From NCBI GenBank assembly GCA_040954595.2, contig CM082583.2, forward strand, positions 9,286,254-9,350,253: a stretch of DNA of 64,000 nucleotides, given 5' to 3'. The stretch comes from Balanoglossus misakiensis. Taxonomy: Eukaryota > Animalia > Hemichordata. The translations under genes and the position numbers were made by a program. Position 1 is the stretch's first letter; every line of letters starts with the position of its first letter. Under the pieces are notes generated by a model, which ran no database searches, was not told the origin of the DNA, and saw nothing but the letters and a program-made list of their open reading frames with translations. Shown here piece after piece: positions 18,001 through 53,239 of the stretch.

Positions 18001-21000
18001 AAATAATGAATATCCTATCATAAATTTTGTGGACAATCAATGACCTTTTGAAAAATGCGTCTTTCTCGGATGGGTTCGGATTCTGAAGGATATAATAAGT
18101 CATATTAGACTGAATAGTCAGATAGAGATCTCTTATGGTTTTCAGAGTTAAAATTCGAAAAATGGTTCTTCCCACTCACTGCAGATACATCGTGAGGGCT
18201 GCTGCTGCCAGTATAAAATGAAAGTCGTTTGTGAATTATTTGCCCTGACTCACCAAAAGAAGTGATTTCCCCCCCCCCCCTACATATTTTGCCAGTCATT
18301 ATCTTTCACAGTCGTGTGCAATTTACGAAGTACATGTCTGTACTGGAGTGTGGTTATGACACGTACTGTACGGTAAATGAGATGCCCTCCCCAATATCAT
18401 TATACCTTGAAATGCATCATTTTGTGCTGATTTACCATAACAATGGAGGTAATCAGTGATGTAATGCGGACACGGCCACCGGTTTTCTGTGTCCCGTAGG
18501 GCCAGGTACGGCAGTGTGTCACTCAGGGCGGATAGGGGGTCCCCACCACCATGGCTTTAATTGGTTCTCTAGTCAAGTTCAAGTTTGTGTCATTGTGTCA
18601 ATCAAACGCCTGAACAAAAGTTGTGTATTGCAGCACGTCGTGCAGTTCATTTTTCAACTGGGTTTTTGTATAGATAAGGGGGATACGAGGGTGTCTAGCG
18701 ATCTGTCCATAATCATCCGTATCAATGCAATCTGCTTTATGCCATTGAAAAACACACTTTCAATTTTCATTACTTGTGTCAAGGCTTTTCTAACTGAGCT
18801 TCTATTTAGCTGAGGTGCCGAATTTATAGTATAATTTACGAGAACTGTGTCACAGGGTTTAATCAGATCTGCAACCCGGTCTCAGTATATACATGTACAT
18901 ATGTAGGTGAAAGTTTAAAAGTTAAAAGAAAACTGAATAAATTCCTGCTTTCTGTGATTTGTTTTCATAAAATGTAATGTGAGGACAGTTAAAAGTGGTT
19001 TTATTTTATGCATTGCACACGTTTATGGATTTTTTTTGTATTCTGGTGTTCATATAAAAATGTGACTGTTGTTCTTTTGTATGACAGGGATGGAGGTCTC
19101 AGTTGCCAGTACAGGTCATGATAAATTTCAGACGACAGCAATTTATTTTTCTTATATTGACATCACTGAGAAAGCATGGGGAAGAATTTGTGTGATATTT
19201 AATAGTGTCTGAATGATTCGTCATTCTTTATTGCCACTTTATTGGCAGCTGTCGCCTACCGCAAGCTCCTCTAATTCTGACTTTTCACTGATTTCACCAT
19301 TCATCAAGATTCATAAGGTGTCTCGAAGTACTTAGCCTTTGTGTCAATTCAGTGAAATGGATTCTTCTCTATCTTGTCAGATCATCAGCAAGGGGTGAAT
19401 GTGACCCTGATACTGTCTTCTTTCCAATATCATTATACTGAGTGTACTTGAAAGCAGGAAGCTGTGCGTGGATGGCATTCATTTGCTGTGAATTTGAAAC
19501 ATGTTAGTTATACAAAAACCTTAAAATGGGAGGAGTGTCCATGATGCATACGACAGTTTCTGAGCAATTTACATTTTTGTGCCAAGCATTGAGTTTGATT
19601 TGTAGTGGACTAGAGGTTCATTTCTCTGATGTTATCTTCGCATGATGGTATATTAGTCTTTGGCAAGCTTTGAGAAAAGTGAGCTGTAGACATCAGATTT
19701 TACTGTCTACTGGTTCACTTGTTTTCATATCAACGTACGGTACTATTTAGCTATAGAAACTCATCTTTAGGAATTCTTCCCAGGAATAATCTCGTAAATA
19801 CTTGGACAATTTGGCTGTAATCAGCTTTCAGATCTGTGTTTTCAAGTCTGTGGCGCACATATAGCCACCTTGTCTGGACTTTTTGACATATCATTTAGCC
19901 TTTTCACATTGCAGTGCTTTTGCACAGTCAATTAGAAGAAAAAAATGATAGGGATGGCAATGCCTGGGGAGTTTTATCAGGTATTTCCTCTCAAAGTAGA
20001 ATGAGTGAAGCCTTGCCTTTGGGACTTCAATCGTCTGATATGTCTGGCAAGAGTGGCGTTCACGTTTTTTTTTATGTTTCAGTGTGTCCCCGTGAACATA
20101 AGTGCATTGGCATGTTGAAATTTGTATAACTGCATGAATTTATAGGGTGATTGTAGATTTATAAATTCAAGAAAGCAAACTAGAGAATTTTGTTTAGTGT
20201 TGCTGCACGTAATAGGATATATACAGAACACATTTGGCTGTACGTTCACCATCAGAATGATTCTAGATAGCATTTTAATGATTAAAGAACGTGGCTTCAG
20301 CAAAATACTGAATGATGACTGTCCTTGGCGTGGTCAATCACACCTCCTCTGATGGCTGCTACCTTGGCCAGCTTCTTGTAACAGTTTCTTGATACTTCCA
20401 CTTACAGTTCTGAGAATTGACCCATCAACGTGTCAGCCCATCAAACACATATCTCCCTCAGTGTTAGGAAATGAGCTTATACATATAGTGCCTGGCGCAT
20501 GCTCATCAGAGCCATCGAATGCAAAAAACAAAATGGCACAGTACGACGGCTTCATTAACCCTGTAACCTTCTCACCGCCATTGTCAGCGTTTTATCGGCG
20601 TCACAAAATGTATCTCTGCATCATCTTTTATTGAAGAAGTGATCTTGTGTCACATTCACGCGTCGCTTCAAGGATAATGCCGCCTTCTTGGAACTAACGT
20701 GAATTTTGAAAAGGTTCACTTACACCCATAGAAATTTATGTTAAAAAGTAAACTCATCACGCGCTTTTATCTTTGTCGGAATGTCATAACAATAACAAAT
20801 TTTTAAAAGTGGATGAAAAAACGCTGTAATTTGCATCACGTCAATTATAAGCGGTGTATTCTGTTTGTGAAAAAGCTTTTTTCTTGTTTGAATTGTCTTT
20901 TGATGGCCGTGTTATTTGATTGATGGTTTTCATTAAATTCTACTTTGGTTACAATGCCTGAACACACAAACAAATTAGTTTTCTGGGAACGCTGGTGTAT

Positions 21001-22500
21001 CAAGTTGTGTATTCCATGCAAATGATGAGTGTCGCCACTTTTCAACTCCCCTGCGACGGAAACAAATACACTTTTCAAACTCGAGCCACAGTGTTGGTGT
21101 AAGCTGTACCAATGATCGAAAATAGGTACAATGCTGTCAGACACACATTTAAGTTTTATTGCAAAAGGTGAATAGTGCAGTCAACTCCAATGTAGCTTGC
21201 GGTGCCTTTGACATTTGATGAACTTGGCCTTGAGAGACAATTACATGTAACTCTGATGTTCTTGTATTGATACAAGTTATTGCAAAAAAGATTGCGCGGA
21301 CTGAATATGACATCAAAACGAAATTACAAAATTTGTTTCTGACAGCTTAATAAATATTTTGACTGTAATATAGACTGATTTATTGATGACCGTCACTAAA
21401 CTGACACCTGTGAAATTAGACTGGTGTCAAATATCAAGTGCTTTGAAATAGCACCATTGACTATTTTCACCTGGTCATTTTTAATGATTTTTTTTTTGGT
21501 TGAAAATTTTCAGATCAATCATGTCCCTTGATATTCTCCCTTATTGGTTAATGTTGTGTCAGTGTTATGCAAATGAATGCAGTCTTTATAAGTTTACGTA
21601 TTGACGTCGTGGAAAAACCCTGAACCATACTTAATTCATCTGCAGGTCTTTATGAAATGCAGCGACCCTGTCAGTTAGCATGCTTGAAAAGTCTTGCAAA
21701 TTACCAACGCTATACTTCTGACCTTTCTGTAGCTGAAAAAAATTATCTTAATCTGTCAGCCGTAGCTGAGTGTAAAATAAATTATCAACCTTGAAGAAAA
21801 GGGACGATAATTGCAGGATTTTTTGAAATGATGGACAGCTGGCGTCATTTGGACCGCGACTGATTCTGTGTGATTATATTTACACCAGCAGTTCCATCAT
21901 CAACAGGTATTCATAGTATGCATCAGACAAAATTGATGTACATTTTGAATTCAATAATTTGGAGGGATTCCAATGTTGATTATGTAAATCTCCAGTGTTG
22001 AATGCCTTAGAGGTACACAATTTTGCTCCAACACATTCATTCAGCAAATTTGGTACATTGTCCACTTTTGCTTTTTATTCAAATCGAGATTTCATTGAGT
22101 GTCTTTGTAAATGAAAACATGTTTTGACTGAAAAAATAAAATCGTAGGCTGTAAAATTATGAGGTTATAGTTGCCGATAGCACATGTATCATCAACCAAA
22201 GCTGAAACTTAAACTTTTTGCTGGCATTTACATGTTGACATTTCAGTTTGCGGGGAAAAGTTATAAATCTCCTTGTCTTCTTTTGTACCCTAGCTTATAA
22301 GCTGGTTTATTAGTAGTTTTTAATGAAATATTGATAAGCCTGAGATATGTAGTATATATGGTAAGCAGTTTATATAGTCTCTCGAGGTGCCCAGTAGATT
22401 AATACAACAGGCCCATTATTTTTACACAGATAAAATATTCATCCATCTGTGTTGATTCCTTGAGGGCTCTCACACTCACTGGGTACTTTTCTTAGTTAAC

Positions 22501-27117: not shown

Positions 27118-27599
27118 GAGATCTCAACGACAAAGCGGTCAAGTTACACGCTTTGGCCGGCAACCACTCGGGCGACGAACAGAATTGCGACACCAAGGAG
27201 GACCCGGAGAGCGGCGGCGGAGGTGGTGGTGAGCAGCCGGTCAGAAACGGCGTCGGCATCGGATCCGGAAACCCCGACAACTATGCATCCACAATGTCAA
27301 TCATCAACTCGGAGCATCTTCCAGAGCAGAGCTCGCCCGACGGACGGGGCAAGGAGCGACACCAGAGCGAATCGACGGACAACAGCACGGACCAGACGGC
27401 GGCGAGCCAGCAACAGGTGCAGCGCCACCGGTCCCAGGACGCCTCCTCCAACGCCACGCAGATCACAACAGTGGACACACCCCTGGACACACCCCAGGAC
27501 ACACCGCCGGCGTCTCAGAATCACGGCCGGCAACCCATGGGAAGTTCGACTAGCCAGTTTGAGAGGGTCAATGCCACGACACTGAATCTACCCACGCAG
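27118..27599 (+). CDS. NCKX: NCKX internal exon, low-complexity cytoplasmic loop
   Basis: ttccttcag acceptor and CAG|GTATTA donor. GC-rich open frame (ORF 27042..27674) DLNDKAVKLHAL...NLPTQ. Phases 1 to 0 fit both neighbours. Confidence 0.85.
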
Positions 27600-29154: not shown

Positions 29155-29295
29155 CAACCGCCACAGGAGGAAGAGGATATTGAAGAGCCCCTGGACTTGT
29201 CTTGGCCAAAATCATGGAAGAAGAGACTGACGTACATGATTCTGATGCCGATAGTCTTTCCACTGTGGGTGACACTGCCAGACGTCAGACGACCG
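29155..29295 (+). CDS. NCKX: NCKX internal exon (end of loop)
   Basis: tttttttccag acceptor and GTAAAT donor. [47 protein letters not shown] matches the NCKX PLxLxWP...TLPDVR motif. Confidence 0.95.
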
Positions 29296-30224: not shown

Positions 30225-30347
30225 GAGAAGAAGAGGTGGTTCCCCGTCACGTTCATCGGAAGTATTTTGTACATTGCCATGTTTTCGTACATGATGGTGT
30301 GGTGGGCCAATCAGATCATCGAGACCATCCCTGGAATGCCAGATGAG
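30225..30347 (+). CDS. NCKX: NCKX internal exon (transmembrane)
   Basis: ctgtcacag acceptor and GTGAGG donor. EKKRWFPVTFIGSILYIAMFSYMMVWWANQIIETIPGMPDE carries the FSYxMVWWA motif. Confidence 0.95.
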
Positions 30348-33367: not shown

Positions 33368-33504
33368 GTGATGGGATTGACTATCCTGGCAGCCGGCACC
33401 AGCATCCCTGACTTGATCACAAGTGTTATCGTCGCCAGAAAAGGTCTCGGTGACATGGCTGTCTCCAGCTCAGTCGGCAGTAATATATTTGACATAACAG
33501 TGGG
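33368..33504 (+). CDS. NCKX: NCKX exon encoding the alpha-2 repeat
   Basis: [46 protein letters not shown] is the canonical NCKX alpha-2 repeat. ttgcttag acceptor, GTAAGT donor, phase-2 end. Confidence 0.97.
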
Positions 33505-34613: not shown

Positions 34614-34860
34614 ATTGCCGTTTCCATGGATAATATATTCAGCCATCTACAATGGCAAGTCGGTGGTCGTCATCAGCGAGGGTCTCTTCTGCTCCATCCT
34701 GTTGCTGTTCTGTATGCTGATGGTCGTCATCATCACCATCGCTGCCAACCGCTGGAAGATGAACAAAGTTCTCGGCTTCACCATGTTCCTCATGTACGTC
34801 ATCTTCGTCACCATCAGCATTCTGTTTGAGTTACGTGTGATGATCTGTCCCTTCAAGTGA
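34614..34860 (+). CDS. NCKX: NCKX last coding exon (C-terminal TM helices, TGA stop)
   Basis: gtttcag acceptor in phase 2. LPFPWIIYS...GLFCSILLLF...WKMNKVLGFTMFLMYVIFV...ICPFK* is a typical NCKX C-terminus. Confidence 0.95.
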
Positions 34861-35560: not shown

Positions 35561-36354
35561 AATGAAAATACATGTATACACATACTATAGTACCCTGGTA
35601 CTCTACTGGGGAATACTATCATTCCTGTACTGTTAGTCCATGTATTATGTTAGCCTTTTTTCAAATCTGAAATAATTTAATCTTTATCCTTTTTTTCCAT
35701 GCTTGTACTCAACAAAACATGGATCAACCGCACACACCTTTTCATCTCATTAATTTTTAAAAGCCAGAAAGCTTTTTTCTAGTTTTAACCATATTTATTT
35801 TTTAATCTTTGACAGCAAAATATAGTTAAATCTGACTTGATAATGTTTTGGAGAATTCTATCTTAGGGATATACTGTACAAAATACTTGTAAATAAGGAG
35901 AAATTTCCAGATCATCGTGCTAATGTACTTTTCTACTTTCTTGGCAAATTATATTTTGATTTCCGTGGGGGGAGAGAGAGAGAGCTTATATCTGTAAATA
36001 TTATACTGTGCGTAAGACTTGAATTATTTTGACCTTGCCTTCCGTGCATTTCCTGTGACGGCCCTTTTGGCGGAAAATGCTTGGATTGTCAGAAGAGACA
36101 GGAAATGAAGAAGGCTCTTTAAAAATGTCCAATTTTCTCATGAGCAGTGCTGTTTAATTGTGTTGTTGTTCATGATGGATAGGTCATGTTGCTTCTAGTA
36201 CTTTTTGTCGTAAGAATAGAAAATTGTACCACTCTTCATACAAGAATAATACATTATTGGGGGATGGGGGTCACTAACATGCACAAGTGCTATGTAATTT
36301 TACCCATCTTTTGTTTTCTCAGTAAAATCGAATGTCTTAGGTGAAATCTGCCAT

Positions 36355-36376
36355 CCCCCCCCCCCCCCCCCCCCCC
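36355..36376. repeat. Poly-C homopolymer (~22 nt)
   Basis: Seen directly. Shorter C runs lie near 8621, 18268 and 46803. Confidence 0.9.
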
Positions 36377-38631
36377 TTACACTGTGCGTGGTTCCAACTA
36401 CACCTACATCCCATTGAAAACTATTTGTTTGAACCACTGCTTGGACGTAAAAACATTTCTTTTTTCTACACTATTCATTAATTTCAGAATGATGTTGATA
36501 AACTGCTTGCGCCTCAAAATCATTTTTGATTTGTGGCATTTTAAAGAAACAGAAAAGTTGATCTGATGAAGAAAAAAAAATGTTAATAGGACGGGTGGTG
36601 TACAAGTCTGGCATTCGTTGATGGGACTGGAGTAAACAAATCCAAAACTTGAGTCCAACAGAAAAGACCCCTTGTACCATAAGTGAGATGGTGTTGTGGC
36701 TTTTGGTTTGGTGGTGGCCGGTATATGTCTGCTTCCCACATACAAGTATGTTCAAGACACTGAAAGATATCAGACTAAATCATGATCCAGTGCTTTTTCG
36801 TGGACTTGTATGTGCTCGTTCATCCTTTGTTGCTTATACAGTGACAGTGATGTATCTTTTGTTGGAAATTTCTTTATCTGCATTCATTGCTTTATTGATC
36901 TTTGATTTCTCTTTCCAAGTGTAAATTTTTACTCCGAATTCTGCATTCGTGCCTTCAATTCCAACATCTAAGTGAGTTTGTGTTCGCGAAAAAAAAACTT
37001 ATTATACATGAGGCTGAGAAATCTTGTTTCCATTTGTAGTAAAAATGGCAACATAGTGGTTTGTGGTGATTGGAGTTAAAGTCTGGTCACGGAGAAACCT
37101 CAAGACTTGAATCTCTTTTATTTTTGCATTTTTCTCCACATTCCGTCAAAACACACTACATGCAAACTGAGCTTAATAGAACGAGAAAATATTGTGACAT
37201 ATACCTTTATATTTCCCCATTGGGCGATTAAGATTTTAGCGCACTTTATTTGTTATCCTGAAATAATTGTCTCAAAGCCTTCTCTAAAAATAGCACCATT
37301 CATCACCAAAGATGACCGTTGAAGTGACAATCTTATGTATCCAATTTTCAAAATAGATGTGTATGTTTTTTAATCATTATTTTGGGAAACAAGAAATTCC
37401 TACAGCCTCACCTTCTTTGATGATATGTAGATTTAGTATGAATATTTAAAAAGAAATATCTCATAGATGAGCAATATTGACCCTGTGTCAAAGGTCATTT
37501 AACACAGTCACCTTCCTTCCGGGTTGCCATAGCAATTTTGCACTGATGAAAATGGTGTGAATGTAGAAATTAAAATAGAATATTCAATTAAAATTCAGAA
37601 ATTATGTCACTAATGTCCACAGATTTCTGGCTTGCCATTTTTCCCATTTTCATAGTATAGAAATTAAATGGTGGGAGGTATACGATGTCACTATTAAAGA
37701 TAAATCTCTTTACCCTCTCACCCCCATATCTCTGTACAGAGGTCCAACAATACCATTGAAAACAGTGGAGTTGGCCCAAACCACAGTGGTGAAAGGGTTT
37801 AAGTCATGAACGCTAGAGTTCCACTATTTTACCTGCTATGTTTATTTCTCCGATAATTATAAAATCAATCTTATAAATTACTGCTGGTGTCCTAGAAGTT
37901 CAGAATCTTTGATGACATATTCCAGTTGATGTGGCTAATAGTTATAAATGAATGAATAAATAAAGGTTAAAATGCCAAATTAGAGTTACAGAATTTACAA
38001 ATACATGTTAATGTACCTGCTTGTAAGGAAATGTTACTTTTCTGTCTACACACCTTTGTCTGTCACAGAGAAAAGCCAATCTCTCCATTTCTCAGAACAC
38101 CTGTCCACCCCATCTTGCAATGAAATGGAATGTTCCTGCTTTGCAAGACCAATAGGAATTGACCATGCATGCAAGAAGGTGGGATGGACAAGACTTGAAA
38201 GAGGGAACGTATGCAATTTTCACTCTCTGGACACTTTGTAGACACTGTGATTTGTGTCGAGTTAAATTTTTTTCTGTGTATGTGGTATATTGGTGTTGCT
38301 CTTCTGACTAAAATGAAATTTACTGAGAATAATATAAGCTTGTAAATATATTCCTATTATGGGTAATACGGTAATAAGAATTATACCACTGAGTGCAATA
38401 CTGGGAATTTTAAGAATGGTTGCAAATAAGATTATTTTATTTCCACTGTAGGTTTATAAAAAACACTATAAATGTACAGAACAGGGTTGCATGTTTTTCC
38501 TTTTTCTTGGTTTAGCCAACATTCACCAATTTAGGACTTTACAGCAATCAGGTTGTAAGAATTTCTATGTGGATACACATTTCTGTAAATCTCTGCTCAA
38601 TCTTGTAAATTTATTCAAGTCCTGCAAACAG

Positions 38632-38637
38632 AATAAA
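38632..38637 (+). terminator. Candidate distal polyadenylation signal of NCKX
   Basis: AATAAA ending a long AT-rich region with TGTAAATA Pumilio-type elements (35888, 35993, 38341). An alternative AATAAA lies at 37955-37964. Confidence 0.5.
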
Positions 38638-38822
38638 ACTTCTTTTCTGCACACAAATGTGGAGCCGTTTTTTCTTTCATTCGCCTCAGATTGGAAGAGA
38701 GCCTAGCCACATGCTGGGGTCCAACAGGCATTCACACTCGTGACTGGCTATTCTGCATCACTGGGGAGCAGCCACGAACAAAAACATGCAATCCACAAAT
38801 GTAGAAAGTTTATATTGCACAA

Positions 38823-38828
38823 TTTATT
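38823..38828 (-). terminator. Candidate polyadenylation signal of the BH3-only gene
   Basis: AATAAA on the minus strand about 770 nt after the stop codon. A second lies at 39009-39014. Confidence 0.55.
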
Positions 38829-38924
38829 AAAGAATATTTACAGCACATTGTAGTACATCTGTATTAAAACTTGACAATGAAGAGTATATGTGGCTCATAT
38901 AAGTAGCAGATCCACTATCAGTAT

Positions 38925-38938
38925 AGCGCCCTCTGTGG
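38925..38938 (-). promoter_or_regulatory. CTCF-like motif, reverse orientation
   Basis: Minus strand reads CCACAGAGGGCGCT, matching the CTCF AGRGGGCGC core with a weaker 5' part. Confidence 0.4.
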
Positions 38939-39592
38939 TTCAACGAAGATGCCAGTTACATCTCAAACTTTGACGCCAGGCCGGGCATGTAAATTTTTAT
39001 CATGTACTTTTATTAGTTCTATAAAAGTGTAAATCTTTGCATGTTAGAGAGTGAATATACTGATTTGTGCGCTTGAGTAAATGCAAAGTTCTTCATACAT
39101 TTATAATGAATTCACTGTTTAGATGCTAACATTACAATCTTCATCACAATATTGCAGGCACACTGAGTGCCCCACAGAACCAAGAGCAGTTATTATTTAT
39201 ATTCCATTGGAATATGAGGCTTAACTGAATTGCTCATATATCTGCCATGTAAATAATAATGCCAAGAAAACAATCCTCTGCTTTTCAAATGTACATCTCT
39301 AGATCATGTGATATCTCATGTGACACTGGTCATACTGCTTGGTTAGACTTAGATGTTAGCCATGAAAAGTTAAGGTCCTCCACATCTTTAGCATAATCTG
39401 ATATTAATTATAGCATATCTTTTGCAAGATTCCAATGCAGACCACTGTGGAATAACCTCATTCCTTTTTCTGGCAGTCTTTTGTTCCTGTTCTCACGACT
39501 CTCGGCATTCAGATGCATTCTTGATGCAGGTCAGTTGAGAACACTGTGTGTAAGGCTTATCCATCATTGCTGTGGGGTTATTTTCAACAGCA

Positions 39593-39868
39593 CTATCTTT
39601 CTGGAGGAGTTCTAGGAGGCCTGTAGAGTACCATGGGCGATTTATTAAACAGCCTGTCATTGGCATCGTCAGCAATTGCCCTCAAGGAGAGTCCAATGTT
39701 TTTGGCACGCACACGGGCATCACTGTCTCCTGGGTTGCCAAGGTAACGGCCGGATGGTACAGATCTGATCCTGTCCATGTTGTTAAAGACACCTGTATCT
39801 GTCATGAAGCTCGGGTTGCCAGTGGCTGCTTCAAAATTGTTCATTGGGTTTGATTTTTCCATTAACAT
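39593..39868 (-). CDS. Candidate BH3-only pro-apoptotic protein (91 aa, PUMA/BIM-like BH3)
   Basis: ORF contains RAKNIGLSLRAIADDANDRLF (I-G-x-x-L-R-x-I-A-D-D-x-N; compare PUMA IGAQLRRMADDLN). It lies in an exon with a tttcctttgcttacag acceptor (exon starts 39919), an upstream donor at 40511 and downstream polyA signals. Confidence 0.72.
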   Translation of the reverse strand: MLMEKSNPMNNFEAATGNPSFMTDTGVFNNMDRIRSVPSGRYLGNPGDSDARVRAKNIGLSLRAIADDANDRLFNKSPMVLYRPPRTPPER

Positions 39869-40511
39869 AACTTTTCTGTATCTTGGAAAGGCTTTTTTTC
39901 TGAAATGACGATTCCCAACCTGTAAGCAAAGGAAATTGATTCACATGAGAAATCCAATAAACAGTTACACACAATGTTGACAATGTAACCATGGTGACCA
40001 CGAGAAAGCCATGCATCATGATCACACAAGGGTGGAGTACCTCCAAGGTGATGACATCATTTTCAAATATTGATTACTTTTGGTCCTTGTGTTGGAAAAA
40101 TGAACTTTCTTCGATCAAATTTTTGTGCTATATACCCATCGATTCTTTGATGATAGATTTATCTGAGTGGATAAACTCCATCTGTGTTGATGTACCCGTG
40201 GAGGGGAAATTTTAAGTTCACATGGAACTACACTATTGTTACTACATGAAATCGAATCTGGCTCAATCATGATTCTGCTTGTCGATATCAACATGTAAGC
40301 TATGTAATCGTACGAATTTTGAATGAATAACATAAGATTTCAATGGGAAAATATCGGGGGCAAATATTATATGGATCTATAAGTTGGGGGAGATTTCTGA
40401 CATGACAACAATGGTCAAATTTGAGAAACTACGTACGTTATCTGCAGCTTCACTCGGTCAGTGTTTTCCAGATCTATAATAATATATTCTCGAGTGCTTC
40501 CCTGTTCTCAC

Positions 40512-40600
40512 TTCTCTTCGTCGGGACGCTTCACTGACGTGGACCGTCCGATCGGACTAACTTGAACACTGGCTGAGCTAATGGGAAATCCGTTGTACTG
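40512..40600 (-). other. Non-coding first exon of the BH3-only gene (5' end approximate)
   Basis: GAA|GTGAGA donor at 40511 on the minus strand. CpG-rich, with no ATG in this interval. Confidence 0.5.
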
Positions 40601-40830
40601 CGAATAAGGAAGTAAAATCTCTCATTTGAAAGCGAATTCGCGGGAACTACGTTCGTCAAGTCACGGAGCTCTGGCCAAAAATAACTTGTAATTTTCCTGA
40701 TCCTCCAATCAATGGACGCCGTCACCATTGACGACACGGCAGACGATGACGTTGGATGCTATATTTAGATCTGTGACGTATAACTGGCAGACCCAATGAG
40801 CTTTCGAATTTTCCGGAAGTTATTTGCGTC
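40530..40830. promoter_or_regulatory. CpG-rich bidirectional promoter shared by the BH3-only and Mcl-1-like genes
   Basis: Locally high CpG. CCAAT boxes 40705 and 40793, ETS/GABP CCGGAAGT 40813-40820, CRE/ATF-type TGACGT at 40535, 40747 and 40774, MEF2-type CTATATTTAG 40759-40768, partial GGAACTAC 40643. Confidence 0.65.
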
Positions 40831-41005
40831 CGACAAAAAAACGATCTTCACCGAACATTAATAAGTATTGAGTATATTCGTATGTGTGTTTGTCGAAAGA
40901 GTGGCCGCACAATCGTACCGTCAGGATTGAATCATTTTGTCTAGTTGTATCTCACACCAAAGAACGTACGTTCACTTCGACCAATCGCCAGATCGTGAGT
41001 GTACC

Positions 41006-41575
41006 ATGGCCGCGGCAATCCCTGGATCGAATTTTTTCACACCGCACAATATCTCGCGATTATACGGCGGCGGTTCGCCCGGTAAAGATTCGGCGCAGAG
41101 AAATGTGTCTCAACCAGAAGATACAGATTTACCGTCGCCAAACACAGAGAGAACTGTTCATTTAGGGGAAGAAGACATCATGTCAACTGCGAAGCTGTTA
41201 GCAGACGACTACATCAGTTACAAGACCAACAGGAGTACAAGCACAAAACCTCCAAGCACGCACGCCGCAACGCTCCGGCGAGTGGGGGATGAAATCGATG
41301 AAAAATACTGTATTTCACTGAACGGCATTACAGAAAGGTTGCAGTTTTCACCGGAAAGAGATGGCTACGACGCCTACAGGGCGTGCTTGGACAGTATGTT
41401 TGACGAGGGCAATGTGAATTGGGGCAGGATCGCAACAGTTTATGTTTTCAGCGCCAGACTTGCCAAACATTGCCAAGACAGAGACCTTGTCGAATATGTC
41501 GACGTTGTCAAGGAGTTCACGGCGCAGTACGTGCGCTCCAAATTGTCGAAATGGATTCAGAAACAAGGCGGATGG
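41006..41575 (+). CDS. MCL1: Bcl-2 family protein, Mcl-1-like, coding exon 1 (BH3, BH1, start of BH2)
   Basis: ACCATGG Kozak start. BH3 ATLRRVGDEIDEKY, BH1 MFDEGNVNWGRIATVYVF and BH2 WIQKQGGW followed by a GTACGT donor at the conserved phase-0 GGW|D intron. TLRRVGD, AKH and a PEST-like N-terminus resemble Mcl-1. Family is secure; orthology is inferred. Confidence 0.93.
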
Positions 41576-42225
41576 GTACGTTGGGTGCATAATTTTCCCA
41601 TTTGTAGATTACAAAATGTTCGTTTTAGGGTTAGCCGTACATTGTAGATGCATCAGGAAAAAAAATTAACAGAAAAGCTAGGTACGGCCAGTTTGCTTCC
41701 GAATCATCTACATCCATCGGTTGCCCCACAGACGTGACGTGTGTGGCGGCTCCAGTTTGAACCGCCGCATGAACTGTAAACAGGCGGTGGGGCTCGGCCG
41801 TTGACACGATCTCAATGCATAAACGATGCAAACAATTCCAAATCGCATGACATGCTATGTATAGCTGCCATACATAGTCACTGCAGCGTGTACATTTCAT
41901 CTTGTACATTTCAAATGAGTCAGAGTATGTTGAGAACTTCACTGAAATTTCATTTTTTTGTGGCCTTGGCAACTAACACGGAAGATGAACATGATGAACG
42001 GAGACAGGAAATGTTTCTTTTACTGGCATGGAGGGAATATCGCATGGAAATTTTAGATCATCACACCAGGAAGCAAAACTATAAAAATACTTGTAAAAGG
42101 GAACTGTTTGGATCAAGTTTCGTTTTAGAATGTAATCCATCTTTTGTTTCGATCACGCGTCCATTTCCCCTTATTTTTCTGTCAATGTCATGTATTTATA
42201 TGCATTTCATATTTTTGTCATTCAG

Positions 42226-42348
42226 GATGCCATGGATGATGCGTTCAAAGAGAAAGACTGGAGAGAGAAGGTTGCGTTCAATGGACTTATGGTGACTGGA
42301 GCTGTTTTAACTGGCCTGGCAGCCCTGAGATTCATGATGGGAAAGTGA
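42226..42348 (+). CDS. MCL1: Mcl-1-like protein, last coding exon (tail anchor); total 230 aa
   Basis: tttttgtcattcag acceptor. DAMDDAFKEKDWREKVAFNGLMVTGAVLTGLAALRFMMGK* completes BH2 and adds a hydrophobic C-terminal anchor with basic residues. Confidence 0.92.
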   Translation, partial: DAMDDAFKEKDWREKVAFNGLMVTGAVLTGLAALRFMMGK

Positions 42349-44042
42349 ATGGTGCAGATTACTAAAAATAATGTGGACAAACAACTTGTCAAATCAAATT
42401 CCAGAGAGGCTGGCAATGAAATAGCTGGAATTTTTCAGAGAGACTTTCTTCTGTACATAGACACCATCCAATGCAAGAGGTAGTGTTTGCTGGGGCAGAC
42501 CATTTTGTCAGGGGAAGGAGCCACCGAATTGTGTTTTCTGTTTTGTAAATGAAAAGAAAAAAACGTTTTCTAATCAAACTCCATGTGCAATATATGAAGC
42601 TTTTACATGTATTTAGCCTTTTACAAGTTACCTTTCAAGGTATCAAATTGTACCAGTCTTGAGTTGATTGCATTTGACGAAGTTGGCCCCCTTCTCCTGA
42701 GAAAATTTGTCTGTCCCAGGTGCTAATATCAATAAATTGGACTGCTTGACATCCATTGAGCCCATGGCAGTTTCTGATTATATCAGAAACTCCGGTTTAC
42801 TTGCATGTATATATATACCTCCGCCGCCGCCTCCCAGCATGGCAATTTAAAGTCTACAGTATCCTGTCAATCATTATTTGTGGGTGAATTAATGTGAATA
42901 TGTTGAAACATGAAATATGTCTTACATGAACTTGCAAGCCGTGCCCACCTGAAATCAGCACACGATACGCAATAATAAGACAGAAAATCAGCATTATTTA
43001 TATTTTGGCTGGATCTGAAATATCTCGAAGTAATGCAGAGCTCCTAATCCCGTGATTTATGTTAAACTGAAAGAAAAGTAATGATACAATGTGCACCGAA
43101 GTTTGACTGCAAGGGCATGTAGGATAAAATCCATAACTCTACTTTTGGTACGGGTTATGGTGGGGTGGGGGTTTTGGGGTCGCACCTAGTGCAAAATAGT
43201 TTAGTCTAAAATACGGTTTACCACCGTTCAACAATCACCAATTATTTGTAACGCAGTTTTGGTTTTGAAATGTAAGAAGTCTGTACAAAAATCTACCATA
43301 ACCACTTTACACTTCACAAAACGCCAAGTCCAATATCAAAGTATCTAACTGCTTGAATATCTATAGGTATAAAACCAAATTGACTGTAACTCCCATCCGA
43401 TCGGTGAGGTCAGTTCCTTTGAGGTCTCTGTAACTTTCAACAAAGAGCTTTCTTGGAAAGCTAGATAACATTTCATTCTTAGTGATAACATATTTTTGTT
43501 GTTTTGTTTTTTGAGTGAAAGGAACTTGTGTACTGGGACAAGTGACAACTGCCATCATTTTTGCAGTCAAGTTTTCATTTACCTACGTGTAGTCTGGTTG
43601 AAGTGCTTCTTTCATTTACGATCAGAGTTATTTTTCAGGGATGCGCTGTATATAGCAAGTGTGCACTTTTTTTTCACTGGATTTTAACTTTTTTCTATTT
43701 TTTACAATATAATTTGACGAATCAAGAAAAGTTAAAGCCCGGTGAACGTGCATGCTTCCTTTTACAGTTATGTGCTTAAAAGCGAAAGAGAAACGTGTGG
43801 TTGTCACAGCTGAACAGCTGGAAAAAAATCTGTAAATTTGTTCTTGTGGAATGTGTACATTAGTTGTGGATTCAGAAAGTGAACAAGTCAGAATGGATGT
43901 AGCCAGAAGAATAGCACTCGTATATTTTTGTTGAGTTATGGTTTTTGTTCCGCAGCTGATTTTTATCTTTTCTGTTCAGAGTATTTTTATATAAAATGTG
44001 GTTATCCTTTAAAACGTTTAAATCTATCATCTGTACGGTTCT

Positions 44043-44048
44043 AATAAA
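44043..44048 (+). terminator. Candidate polyadenylation signal of the Mcl-1-like gene
   Basis: AATAAA followed about 30 nt later by a GT/T-rich tract. A proximal AATAAA lies at 42731. Confidence 0.55.
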
Positions 44049-46868
44049 CCTTCACAAAATTGGACAAAGATCCTCTCCGTGTGTGCGTTTTATTTTTGTG
44101 TCAGCGCTAGTTGTCGCATGTGAATGTGTTGTGGATTGATGTCAGAAATATATGTTAAAGTAAAAAAAAAGAAGAAAAGAAATCTGGTTTAGTTTGTAGT
44201 AGATTGTGTAGTCGAGACCCACACAGCAAGTCTGAGAAGCTGACCAGTGCATATAACAGATTGGACTCTTGCCAACAACCGGATCGTGAGAACACAATCA
44301 TTGGTTTCTAAGGGTGTAGGTGGAATGCTATTGACGTGGCCCAACCTTAGACACAATGGGTCATTGATTTTCTATTGTTGAAAGAATACCTGCGTCTATT
44401 TCATCCTCTGCACTAAAGCCACAGGTATGCGTCACCCACTGCATTGTGGGAGACTCCTGACACACATTATATTCAAATGCAGTCTGCCTACGTGAAGAAC
44501 GTATCGATTTTATGAGAATTGTCAATCTCACCCCTTTTGTCTGATCGGGGTCCAGAATCTTGAGTTGGGATTGGGATTGCGAGGTGTGTCGTAAGCAACA
44601 CCCACCATAATTGGTCAAAGACTAGGACCTCAATACAATGACAAAACAGGAAGCCAATGACCAATTCATGAGTTTCTTTCCAGGAATTAATTGGTAATCT
44701 CCCTGTGTACATGTTTGAGCAGCACTGGCGCAGTTGAACTTGAGAAGTGAATTGCTGTGTCATGTATGAGTCACACGTCCGCACAATTGGTGCCTGTCTC
44801 CAACCAAATTCCACATGGCCTGAAAGGTTGTCGTGGGCTTGTTCTTTCAGGCAAAATTTCATTTACAGTTCAACCTTGAGTTTTAGGACGATAAATTCGG
44901 AGTACTATACTGGGGGCTCGTATTTCACATATTTGAGAGTCCGCACCAAAATAGGAAAAATATGGTTCCTTAGCATGTTGCAGCACTGAGTATATAAAAT
45001 TATGGAAGATAAACAACATTAATATTCATGAAATCTCCAGGCATGATTGGGGATATCATTGACGTTTATTTTGAGCTTCGGCTGGGACTAACATTGACAT
45101 TAATTTAGATAATCACTTTGAGCATTTGGAGTTGCAAAAATGTCGCAAGGTTCGTTTGGGCATTGACAGCTGTCGGTGTGGTGATTAATGGCGTTGCCAT
45201 GGTAGTGTCACATGATGCTGACTTGCCTCTTCCATAGAATTACACTCCCCCCTCCCTCTCATGCGTTATGAAACAAACACGCCTGTTGTTTGCCAGAGTG
45301 ACGTGAGAGGTCACCTATTGGGGTCACTGACCAGGGCAATGCACTTTTAACCTTGTGTTTGCCAGAGTGCCAATTTCATGAACACCTGGTTGGTTGTACC
45401 TCAAAATAAAAACTGACCTTTTCATCAAATTTCAACAGCAGTCTTTTTGTTTATTTTTATGTAAATAAGATACAAATGTATTGTTAAACCAATAGTGCAT
45501 TACGTACCTTCATCTCGTGAGCTTGCAATAAAAGATACAAAGAGCGCACATGACTGCGTATCATTTCACAGGTCAGGTAATCTGGGGTTGACATTTCATA
45601 AGCTTTTTTTATCATCTGTGACCATTAATGATTCAGACGATAGTGCATAGCTAATCCCAGTTGAAACAGAACAGCATTTTTAGCACATTGTTCAAGTTAA
45701 TTTGACTACTGAAAGTAAAAGTCAATGTCCACTTGAAAGTGTATGTGGCCAGTGTGTAGTGATCTGGCAAGGTTGTTTTTGATTGGTCAGTTTATTGTCA
45801 AACAGGTGTATGTAACCAGAAGGGATAGGTTTTTCTGACTCTCTGCGCATTGAGTGGCCAAGGGTATGCAGGTGGTCCATCCATAAAGTTTTGAATTCTG
45901 TCATCACAAAATTATTAATTGGACCCGTTCAAGAATACTGTACCCTCATCTCTCTGTAATACTATCATAGTGTATTTTAAATGGCGAACTAGTGGCATTC
46001 ATACTCAATGGCAGTGATGAAACCGGACAATGATAATCTTCTGCAAATACATATTGTATTTACCTGTATTCATGCACACAAAGGCGGTTTTCAAACTGCA
46101 TGACGTCAATGTAACATTATTTCAGCGGGTAAACAATTGTTTTGTCCCCCAACAAAAGTGATTTCGCATCATTGCATCATGCCAGAAAACATTGCAAAGC
46201 GTTCCATCGAAAACAACTGCTTGGCATTCCACAGAATTTTATCATCAAGTACATTTAAACAGTTTCTAATACATGTATTCTGCATGTGTTCATACTCACG
46301 TACAATATTTAATCAGTTCCAGGTATTGTTTTCCAAAACTTTTACTTTCATGCGAAATGAAACAAGACGGTATATGGCTGATTGTATATAAATACACAGC
46401 AAACATAATTGTTTTTCAGTGCATGCCTCCATGTTTTTTGGAGATATTGTTATCATAATGAAATACAAGTATGATCTGTCACAGCAATTATGCACGCAAT
46501 ATTAGTCTGGACATGATATTTGCCTGGGACAGTGTTGTTGTACACATGTTTACGTCTGATGTCTACGTCTGTTTCTATTAATAAACCAGTGGTATGTTCC
46601 CCCACGCTGTCCAAACATATGTTTGCATGGTTTTTAATTCCTCCTGTACTACGCGTGACCTCAATTGTTGTTTTTGTGAGGCGGTTGACGGCCCAGAGAG
46701 TTCAAGGCAGGCTGTTATCATAACAGTCACCTACCTAGGCGTGTATATATGCACATAACGTACCTGCGTCAAAAGCAGCTTAGACGGAAACCTCGCTTTT
46801 AACCCCCCCCCCCCCCCAGCCAGCGCCCACCCAGATGACTCTTCTCAAATTTTGACGCACTTGTCAAT

Positions 46869-50759: not shown

Positions 50760-53159
50760 GAACACATTATGCAAAAGGAAAAAGACATTTAGCAAAGAAG
50801 GTACAAGATTTTACAGTGCAGTGAGCACATTGAAAACTGAATTTTACATTAGATTGGTACAATATACATTATTCATGGGACTTAGTCTGCACTGAGTGGA
50901 GACACACGACCCATGATGCCTCTGTGTGCGTGTGTGTGTTTGTGTAGTGTGTATATCGCTCACTCAATGATGTGCTAAAAATAGCCTCATTTAATCATTG
51001 CACAATTCCAGAACACTGCCCTGTGTACATATGAATTTACTTTCAAGGTTTTTATGTGGGTGATTCACCACATTTTTTTTTTCATTCCACACTAAAGATA
51101 AATTATCCTGGAATTTGCCGTTCATATTACCTTGTGAGTCCATTAACACTGTTTTATAAAAATAAATTCACAATGATCTGGAATGGGAATAAAATTTTAC
51201 GAGCACCGACATTCTGAATATAGTTTTGTTGATTAGCGATCCCATTTTTTCCATACCCAACTTAATTTCATCAGCAAAGTCAATGGATTTCATCATTCCT
51301 AGTTTAGCGACATTTCAGTTTCAATGATAAAAAATATTGATTCTCAGCATGTTATTTTGATACCAAAAACATATTTCTCCCACATACATTATGTATTTAT
51401 GGCCTCTGAGTTATATATACACTTACGAGCTGACGGATCAACCACTTAATATCAACTATGCTCATAAATGACCCAAGACCACACAAGACAATATCAAATT
51501 ATAACTGCCAATTTCACGAAAGAATGTATTATCACATTCACCCTGCCTAGACGTCTCTGTATGTGTCTCAAAATTAAAATAATCATTTCCTTTCCCCTTT
51601 GACTATAAATCTAAAATACCGGCATTTCTAGAAAACACCGACAGTAAATTTAATCGCAAATTCTGCATCTTCAGGTAGCGCTGAAGAAATATAGACAGAA
51701 AATCTTGCAACCATCATTTTAATACTTGAAAATTCATTTCAGACAGAAATACAATGCCCCCGGTTTTTAATATTTACATGTTTTCAAGCCTATTGATGTG
51801 ACATTTTACAATACAAAGGCGTTAATAATATCCAGCAAGCCCCGACTGCTGCCAGTATTATTACGAAAATTCATCACATGTTATATTTACAGAAAATGTC
51901 TATTTATAATGGAACTATTTCGGGTGAAAAGAATATTATGTGTCGTGACACCACCATATTGCTGATGATGATTAAAAAGGCATGAGCTAAAAAAAAGGTG
52001 AACATTCTCCAGATGAAGCTCGAGTTTTTTAATATGAAACAGAAGCATATTTTTTCAGTATTGTTTGTGAAATGGGTGTTTTGATGGCAGGTGTGTGGAG
52101 GGGCCGTTTTTGTCTTCAGGCAGCAGACATAATACAGCGATGAGAAATGAGGTGTCTGGTACGTGCCGTGGGCATTGATGAAAAGGAAAGCCACGGGGTT
52201 TCAAAATTAAAAAAACAGAGTGGGATAAACGGGGAAATGTGGACCACAAAGTGTGATTAAAGTGAGCTTCATAATCAGCACTAGGGCACTGACGTCACAG
52301 GAATTCTCGTGTAGCAATTCATCGTTATGTAACCTGTCTCCAATCAGCGCGGAAACAAGAAATCACTCCGGGTTGTGACGTCAATGCTAATTCGATTCCT
52401 GTCTGATTAAAAGCCGACTGGCTGACTCCTGTGTTTTAGGGGCAATTCCGCAGTCTGGTTTTTCAATTTCGGGGCAATAAACTCTCACTGAGCTGTCTGA
52501 AATGGTGATCAGAATTCAGCACATTGTCTTTTTACCTTAGTTGTGTGTATTGGGCTGTGGTTCTGCCGCCATCTGCCGTGACTGGATTTTTAAAAAATTG
52601 ACTTTCCTTATATTTTCATCTCCATGAAATTTACAGCGCAAACAGACAGGTACATTGAATCTAGAATATCAGAAGCTGTATTCACAAAGATAAATTATCA
52701 AAACAGCGGAAATGTGATAAAGCTTTCCGATGATGTGTGAGATTAGTTCAATTGACGTACACACCAACATGACGCATCATATTATTAACACAAGTTTCAA
52801 AGCATAAATATCATTACAGGGACTTCAAAACATACCAAAGTAGTTTTGTACTGGAAGATCTGGTGTGGGAAGGAAAGTTTCCAGTACTTCCGTAAATCTA
52901 TTCACATTAATCCAAAATACCGAAACCCTGAAACCCAGTGAGCTGAACATTTTTCAAAATGCTATCAAAACAGTGGAGAAACATATGTGCTATAATATTG
53001 TACAAATTATACACATAATAAATACATACATGTAAACAAAAACAAAAATGTTTGAGATTTTGCATTTTTTTGTATTGTATAGAAAATGTCTGATTCTGAC
53101 AAACTACGGATAAGTGGACGAGTGAGCTGCCAGTGGTTGTATGTACTGCACATCGGATA

Positions 53160-53239
53160 TTAGCTGTCGAGGCAGGTCTTGTACGCCCTTACCTGCTCCT
53201 CAAGAACCTCTCTGCGTATTTTTTCCTCTTGCAACCGTC
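53160..53239 (-). CDS. Ski/SKOR SAND-like domain protein, last coding exon (coiled coil)
   Basis: ttattttctctgtag acceptor in phase 1. (R)RLQEEKIRREVLEEQVRAYKTCLDS* continues the coiled coil of the previous exon. Confidence 0.75.

Follow-up and report, generated by a model that had tools for sequence, protein, structure and literature searches.

A candidate BH3-only gene lying head-to-head with a Bcl-2-family gene in the hemichordate Balanoglossus misakiensis

BH3 motifs share a short core, defined as L-x3-[GAS]-D in the passage of PMC10107002 that deals with them. The human BH3-only proteins span 54–198 aa, and the chemistry by which a BH3 occupies the groove of a Bcl-2-type partner, including the Asp-Arg pairing, is established (both in the relevant parts of PMC7022251). 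In invertebrates, genes of this class are difficult to detect. Potential cnidarian members have been proposed (PMC8998228, in the part concerned with them), the BH3-only repertoire of corals is called an open issue where PMC4715348 touches upon it, and the ambulacrarian members, that is, potential hemichordate and echinoderm BH3-only proteins, have been put forward from sequence only (PMC8998228 section 2.4). A potential BH3-only protein of the same phylum as B. misakiensis is that of Saccoglossus kowalevskii (Suraweera et al. 2022, PMC8998228, Fig. 5), which we compare by its description only; the sections of that paper on this candidate contain no mention of a head-to-head position. Full-text literature searches, judged mainly from titles and the starts of abstracts, surfaced no head-to-head pair of a BH3-only and a Bcl-2 gene. 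The term "BH3-only" occurs in none of the hemichordate papers among the matches listed, and BH3 is not mentioned in the passages of PMC9169294 consulted.

We analysed a window of 64,000 nucleotides (64 kb) of the B. misakiensis genome. Its minus strand carries, at 39593..39868, an open reading frame of 91 codons and a stop, whose predicted product (P0001) falls within the human size range in the part of PMC7022251 cited above. Judged from its sequence, P0001 is probably the product of a new hemichordate BH3-only gene; the class is already known, and P0001 is at best a new member. We file it as a probable member because its h4 position and the curated profiles fail.

The BH3 motif comprises residues 58–74 of P0001 (39647..39697, minus strand) and reads IGLSLRAIADDANDRLF, with a predicted helix at residues 62–75. 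Its positions are Ile58 (h1), Gly59, Leu62 (h2), Arg63, Ile65 (h3), Ala66, Asp67, Ala69 (h4, atypical) and Asn70. The first-pass annotation of this DNA had placed the motif here (39697-39647) and had named h1 to h3, the small residues, the Asp and the Asn, all of which read as described, but it overlooked h4. P0001 therefore has the BH3 core with hydrophobic h1–h3 and small flanking residues, and Ala69 in place of the large hydrophobic h4 residue of BH3-only proteins. By itself, the minimal core (L-x-x-hydrophobic-[GAS]-D) is no rarity: the window has 25 occurrences, where 18.75 are expected. A fuller pattern (hydrophobic-small-x-x-L-R-x-hydrophobic-small-D) occurs once in the window, at the P0001 motif, and in two of 60 simulated windows, or in one of 60 when it must lie inside an ATG-initiated frame of at least 60 aa; these patterns were written post hoc, with the motif already known.

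The motif is identical at 11 of 18 residues to the BH3 of PUMA (BBC3; PDB 2roc_B and 2vof_B), including IG..LR.IADD.N. A search of 177,635 PDB sequences with a 32-residue piece containing it gave two matches at E≤10, both of them PUMA BH3 peptides (E 0.76–0.78), while the whole protein has no match among PDB sequences. Like PUMA, P0001 is short, and it is predicted to be disordered outside the motif. Unlike PUMA, it has Ala instead of Leu at h4 and is without a hydrophobic tail. No similarity is seen beyond the motif, Pfam PF15826 is unmatched, and no p53 consensus half-site is present in positions 37000-44000. The earlier description of the protein as "PUMA-like" thus stands for the motif, by virtue of the PDB matches, but not beyond it. 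As the likeness spans 18 residues, no claim of orthology is possible for P0001.

The nearest named clusters to P0001 by ESM Atlas features are those of BMF, PXT1, BIM, NOXA and BIK, at scores of 0.76–0.85, all below the guide value of 0.9 for a lead; its recognition value is 2213, below the guide value of 2300. As a control, the window's other frame carrying a chance BH3-like motif (20848-21180) retrieved no BH3 family and had a recognition value of 1652. The Pfam models of the five named proteins miss P0001. A BH3 profile scan, which the first-pass annotation had listed as a check, went against it, in that neither P0001 nor any of three sub-pieces matched a Pfam family at E≤10; Bclx_interact matches all six other members of our alignment A2, P0001 excepted. 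A profile built without P0001 ranks the motif second of 48,819 18-mers (17.3 bits; 0 of 40 null windows as high), a rank that is partly circular since 15 of the 21 training pieces came via a P0001-derived pattern. A profile made from the BH3 of the orthologues of the neighbouring Bcl-2 gene alone leaves the motif outside the top eight of 60,372. The BH3 exon would be the last in P0001, compared to second-to-last in most mammalian members (relevant part of PMC7022251).

Searches for an orthologue of P0001 covered protein collections and metagenomes. A word search of 5.8 billion proteins, restricted to 50–160 aa, gave one candidate and none at E≤10, and a full phmmer search of 1.84 billion representatives gave five matches and no orthologue. 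These five were rejected as repeat proteins (WD40, TSP3, lectin-like) matching through many weak stretches outside the motif. A metagenome pattern scan with the P0001 motif returned 316 matches, none confirmed as an orthologue; a second returned 60 loci, with a best tblastn E of 0.004, and in none of them does the likeness reach far past the motif. A profile search yielded 23 of 105 candidates, comprising the coral type and one further short BH3 protein, and none of them carries a hemichordate name. This lack of an orthologue tells mildly against P0001, since the collection contains orthologues of the Bcl-2 neighbour from three named hemichordates. Short ORFs are often dropped by annotation pipelines.

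Eighteen of the 60 metagenome loci pulled by the P0001-motif pattern, many of them redundant, encode short proteins that lack a tail and have their BH3 at the C-terminus (L002, L007, L021-L025, L027, L028, L031, L039, L044, L045, L048, L052, L053, L055 and L058; proteins P0014-P0035). Their named relatives (five named of 23) are stony-coral "hypothetical proteins" from Desmophyllum, Oculina and Acropora, with three copies named from Oculina patagonica. The peptides match Bclx_interact with a best E of 8.5e-6, and P0014-P0035 are likely to be coral BH3-only genes, of at least three subtypes by eye. Like P0001, the stony-coral proteins are short (mostly 75–160 aa), have their BH3 near the C-terminus and lack a tail anchor, and some read LRAIGDD. 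Unlike P0001, they have Leu at h4 and an Arg/Ser-rich N-terminus, and they match Bclx_interact. By sequence they are not P0001 orthologues, and no Bcl-2 exon is found within the 1.5 kb flanks of their loci; they indicate that a P0001-like architecture exists in other invertebrates. A different short frame (P0036; L015:754-1002, minus strand), in which the BH3 is followed by a possible intron read-through, resembles a BH3-coding exon from a spliced animal gene.

A Bcl-2-family gene, missed in the first-pass annotation, begins 1,138 nt from Met1 of P0001 on the opposite strand, in a head-to-head arrangement. Its coding exon 1 (41006..41575, plus strand; Pfam PF00452, E 8.6e-26) contains its own BH3 and a BH1 with an intact NWGR, and ends at the GGW of BH2; coding exon 2 (42226..42348, plus strand) contains helix 8 and a hydrophobic tail. 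Two coding exons split at GGW are the layout of pro-survival members as given in PMC8998228 section 2.2. Exon 1 is 74% identical to the protein found in Ptychodera flava, 64% in Glandiceps talaboti and 58% in S. kowalevskii. These three are the named ones, all enteropneust hemichordates, of six relatives found among 70 candidates, and exon 2 has 72–95% identity to the C-termini of all six. From the exon layout we infer a pro-survival type and go no further than inference, because the database names of the orthologues conflict (BAX-like, A1-like, Mcl-1 homolog) and because the Mcl-1 and Bax scores follow closely among the PDB profile matches (Bcl-2-like 4, 76 bits; Bcl-xL-type, 61–76; Mcl-1, 62–63; Bax, 61–63). 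Nor do these scores single out an Mcl-1-like type. The poorly conserved N-terminus contains an acidic PSP-x-T stretch (41117-41143, plus strand) that is kept in five of the six relatives. Mcl-1 has a phospho-degron, and by analogy this stretch could be one as well.

The two genes are separated by a CpG-rich interval (40437..41005), and they may share one, bidirectional, promoter there. CpG observed/expected ratios of 1.23 and 1.11 in 40001-42000 are the two highest of 64 bins, compared to 0.28–0.35 in 37001-40000. The interval holds seven TGACG, three CCAAT and one TGACGTGG. Only one of 112 bins has at least seven TGACG, a count that in the interval is itself raised by CpG richness; the cluster suggests control of the CREB/ATF stress type. 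The TGACGTGG at 40533-40542 (plus strand), within this putative shared promoter, is one of three in the window and is presumably an unfolded-protein-response-type element.

The minus-strand frame is open over 115 codons (39940-39593). Translation of 39868-39596 gives 91 residues followed by a TAG stop (39595-39593), in agreement with the 91-aa, BH3-bearing frame annotated originally. In-frame Met codons occur at residues 1, 3, 9, 22 and 31. The most favourable start context among them is that of Met31 (39778), with A at −3 and G at +4, like the ATG of the Bcl-2 neighbour. The first five ATGs 3′ of the splice acceptor described below are all in this frame, as are six of nine overall. P0001 has a codon score of −0.004, compared to −0.418 ± 0.162 for 79 non-gene ATG ORFs of at least 60 aa, under a model trained on a small set of five exons within the window. 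None of the 79 scores as high, one does when the Bcl-2 exons are omitted from training, and none of 13 GC-matched null ORFs does. The frame scores best among its six frames, and it lies at the low end of the true exons, which score 0.03–0.61 when left out in turn. Its GC content is 0.476, compared to 0.36 in each flank (1.3% of 5,861 windows are as high); the codon score, the GC step and the related coding signals share a dependence on GC. By segment, the score is −0.27 for Met1–Pro8, between +0.08 and +0.17 over Met9–Phe74, and −0.31 at the Pro-rich end; a product of 61–83 aa, starting between Met9 and Met31, is as plausible as one of 91 aa. No long or high-identity repeat runs across the ORF, an Rfam scan of 36000-46000 gave 0 matches, and strand skews at P0001 are uninformative. 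P0001 looks coding, and the codon score and the acceptor favour its expression and translation.

That acceptor, a pyrimidine tract and AG (39920..39936, minus strand; AG at 39921-39920, exon from 39919), belongs to the best 0.13% of 6,993 AG sites when scored with a simple, home-made consensus. As annotated, 17 open codons separate it from the first ATG (39869..39919, minus strand). The annotation had also allowed that the start could lie further upstream, which the data do not support: these codons resemble non-coding DNA (codon score −0.56, GC 0.35) and are likely to be 5′ UTR, and since coding-like scores begin at Met9, an upstream start is unlikely. A donor-like AAC/GTACGT (GT at 40436-40435), whose GTACGT is identical to the donor of the Bcl-2 neighbour, could close a non-coding first exon of the P0001 gene (putatively 40431..40560, minus strand, with a guessed 5′ end); the 150 nt upstream of this site contain no ATG, and an in-frame stop lies eight codons back. 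The first AATAAA past the P0001 stop (39009..39014, minus strand) is a putative poly(A) signal by sequence match only, and further A[AT]TAAA occur downstream at 38828, 38615, 38441 and 37846. As a gene model, a small BH3-only gene of two exons seems rather likely, with the ORF as its coding exon and with transcription running away from the Bcl-2 neighbour.

The best surviving rival takes P0001 for an ORF that arose by chance, either within a non-coding divergent transcript of the Bcl-2 promoter or in untranscribed DNA; its motif would have been noticed through six-frame scanning near a Bcl-2 gene. The blank orthologue and Pfam searches and the Ala at h4 are what this explanation would lead one to expect; the window has 41 stop-to-stop frames of at least 100 aa, and the Bcl-2 promoter alone accounts for the CpG peak. 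However, a codon score above 78–79 of the 79 null ORFs, the GC step and a strong acceptor coincide 1.1 kb from the Bcl-2 gene, five ATGs are in frame, and the motif arises in only one or two of 60 simulated windows. Annotation often misses genes this short, and the coral BH3 proteins are all named "hypothetical". We thus regard a chance ORF as unlikely.

P0001 contains no transmembrane stretch (GRAVY −0.73; best 19-residue hydropathy 0.04), has a FoldIndex of −0.02 and, by Pfam search, has no Bcl-2 domain (PF00452) and no BH1 or BH2. A single-sequence AlphaFold2 model is coil except for helices at residues 49–56 and 62–75, with a mean pLDDT of 57.8 and a value of 79 for residues 61–70; Foldseek with this low-confidence model found no match at E≤0.001. 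The original picture of a mostly disordered protein without BH1/BH2 or a hydrophobic tail anchor is borne out by these results. Disorder outside the motif and a motif that can form a helix are, for P0001, prediction only. RIRSVP (39766-39749, minus strand), about 20 residues before the BH3, fits an R-x-x-S-x-P pattern of the 14-3-3 type, and PRTP near the C-terminus (39616-39605, minus strand) is presumably a proline-directed kinase pattern; phospho-control of P0001 through either is possible.

The predicted helix need not be a working BH3, and a second rival accepts P0001 as a real microprotein whose helix has no effect on Bcl-2 proteins, being some other binding helix or a decayed BH3. It draws on the Ala at h4 and on the failure of the Pfam BH3 models to detect P0001. 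It also has the precedent of ApoL2, given as an example of a BH3-like motif that is non-functional in the passage of PMC4611713 concerned, and the statement in PMC10107002 that BH3 motifs, as short linear motifs, can arise through convergence or chance. However, h1–h3, both small residues, Arg63, Asp67 and Asn70 match PUMA, and P0001 adjoins a Bcl-2 gene. Moreover, Mcl-1 and Bcl-2 tolerate a single change of h4 to Ala: according to the binding data in PMC2213596, Bim F69A keeps Mcl-1 binding and loses 2-fold towards Bcl-2 and 18–45-fold towards Bcl-xL and Bcl-w. As this substitution spares Mcl-1, Ala69 in P0001 would predict selectivity rather than loss. We therefore give a helix without a Bcl-2 target little credence.

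Two other genes of the window flank the locus. A Na/Ca-K exchanger-type gene (PF01699; 27118-34860, plus strand) converges on P0001, with exons at 27118-27599, 29155-29295, 30225-30347 and 33368-33504 and a last one ending at 34860. A SKI-type gene (60046-53162, minus strand) encodes a c-SKI SMAD4-binding domain within its long first-seen exon (PF08782, E 3.3e-9), shows no Ski_Sno domain in the 495-codon frame, and has small coiled-coil exons at ~57950-57910, 57747-57649 and 53239-53162, with a strong internal donor at 53192. A third rival makes P0001 the terminal exon, perhaps an alternative one, of this SKI-SMAD-domain coiled-coil gene (60046 to ~53160); a 13-kb intron would then contain the Bcl-2 gene, and the product would be a long, BH3-bearing protein. 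In its favour, the exon 53239-53193 closes with a strong donor of phase 0 (CAG/GTAAGG), the 39919 acceptor is also phase 0 with an open frame, and echinoderm BH3-only candidates of 350–373 aa are reported in PMC8998228 section 2.4. Against it, read-through of the donor yields VRAYKTCLDS and then a stop, continuing an EEKVR/EEQVR repeat, an alternative phase-0 acceptor that comes with a stop lies at 51680, 12 AATAAA lie on the minus strand within 53160-42400, and the 17 codons that follow the 39919 acceptor have the codon score of non-coding DNA. We consider this rival quite improbable.

The reading of P0001 as a BH3-only protein is supported by the PUMA peptides, the Atlas leads, the codon score and the adjoining Bcl-2 gene, but not by the orthologue searches, the Pfam models or the Ala at h4. 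Under this BH3-only reading, P0001 and its neighbour would be transcribed divergently from the shared CpG-rich promoter, the non-coding first exon would be spliced to the 39919 acceptor, and translation from one of Met1 to Met31 would give 61–91 aa. The disordered protein would fold residues 58–74 into a helix within a Bcl-2-type groove, binding through Ile58, Leu62 and Ile65, while Asp67 would form a pair with the Arg in its partner's NWGR. Occupancy of the groove would free Bax/Bak, and the natural candidate target would be the Bcl-2 neighbour. Having an Ala at h4 and lacking a tail anchor, P0001 would most likely be a selective sensitiser (NOXA/BAD-like), not a Bax/Bak activator. A bolder and distinctly doubtful proposal is that the locus is a self-balancing killer/guard cassette of acorn worms, in which a BH3-only gene and the pro-survival Bcl-2 gene that it antagonises lie head-to-head on a stress-responsive promoter, with the Ala at h4 tuning the killer to its partner.

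P0001 is a good candidate, not a finding, and its value hinges on synteny in other acorn worms. With a candidate partner physically linked to it, this short candidate offers two proteins that can go straight into a binding test, and a landmark for synteny in other deuterostome genomes. The head-to-head BH3-only/Bcl-2 pair, if real, would be an unusual wiring of apoptosis control. If it is both true and conserved, the cassette may be a remnant of a linkage between BH3-only and Bcl-2 genes that dates from the deuterostome ancestor, and may give a foothold, through synteny, for finding BH3-only genes in invertebrates.
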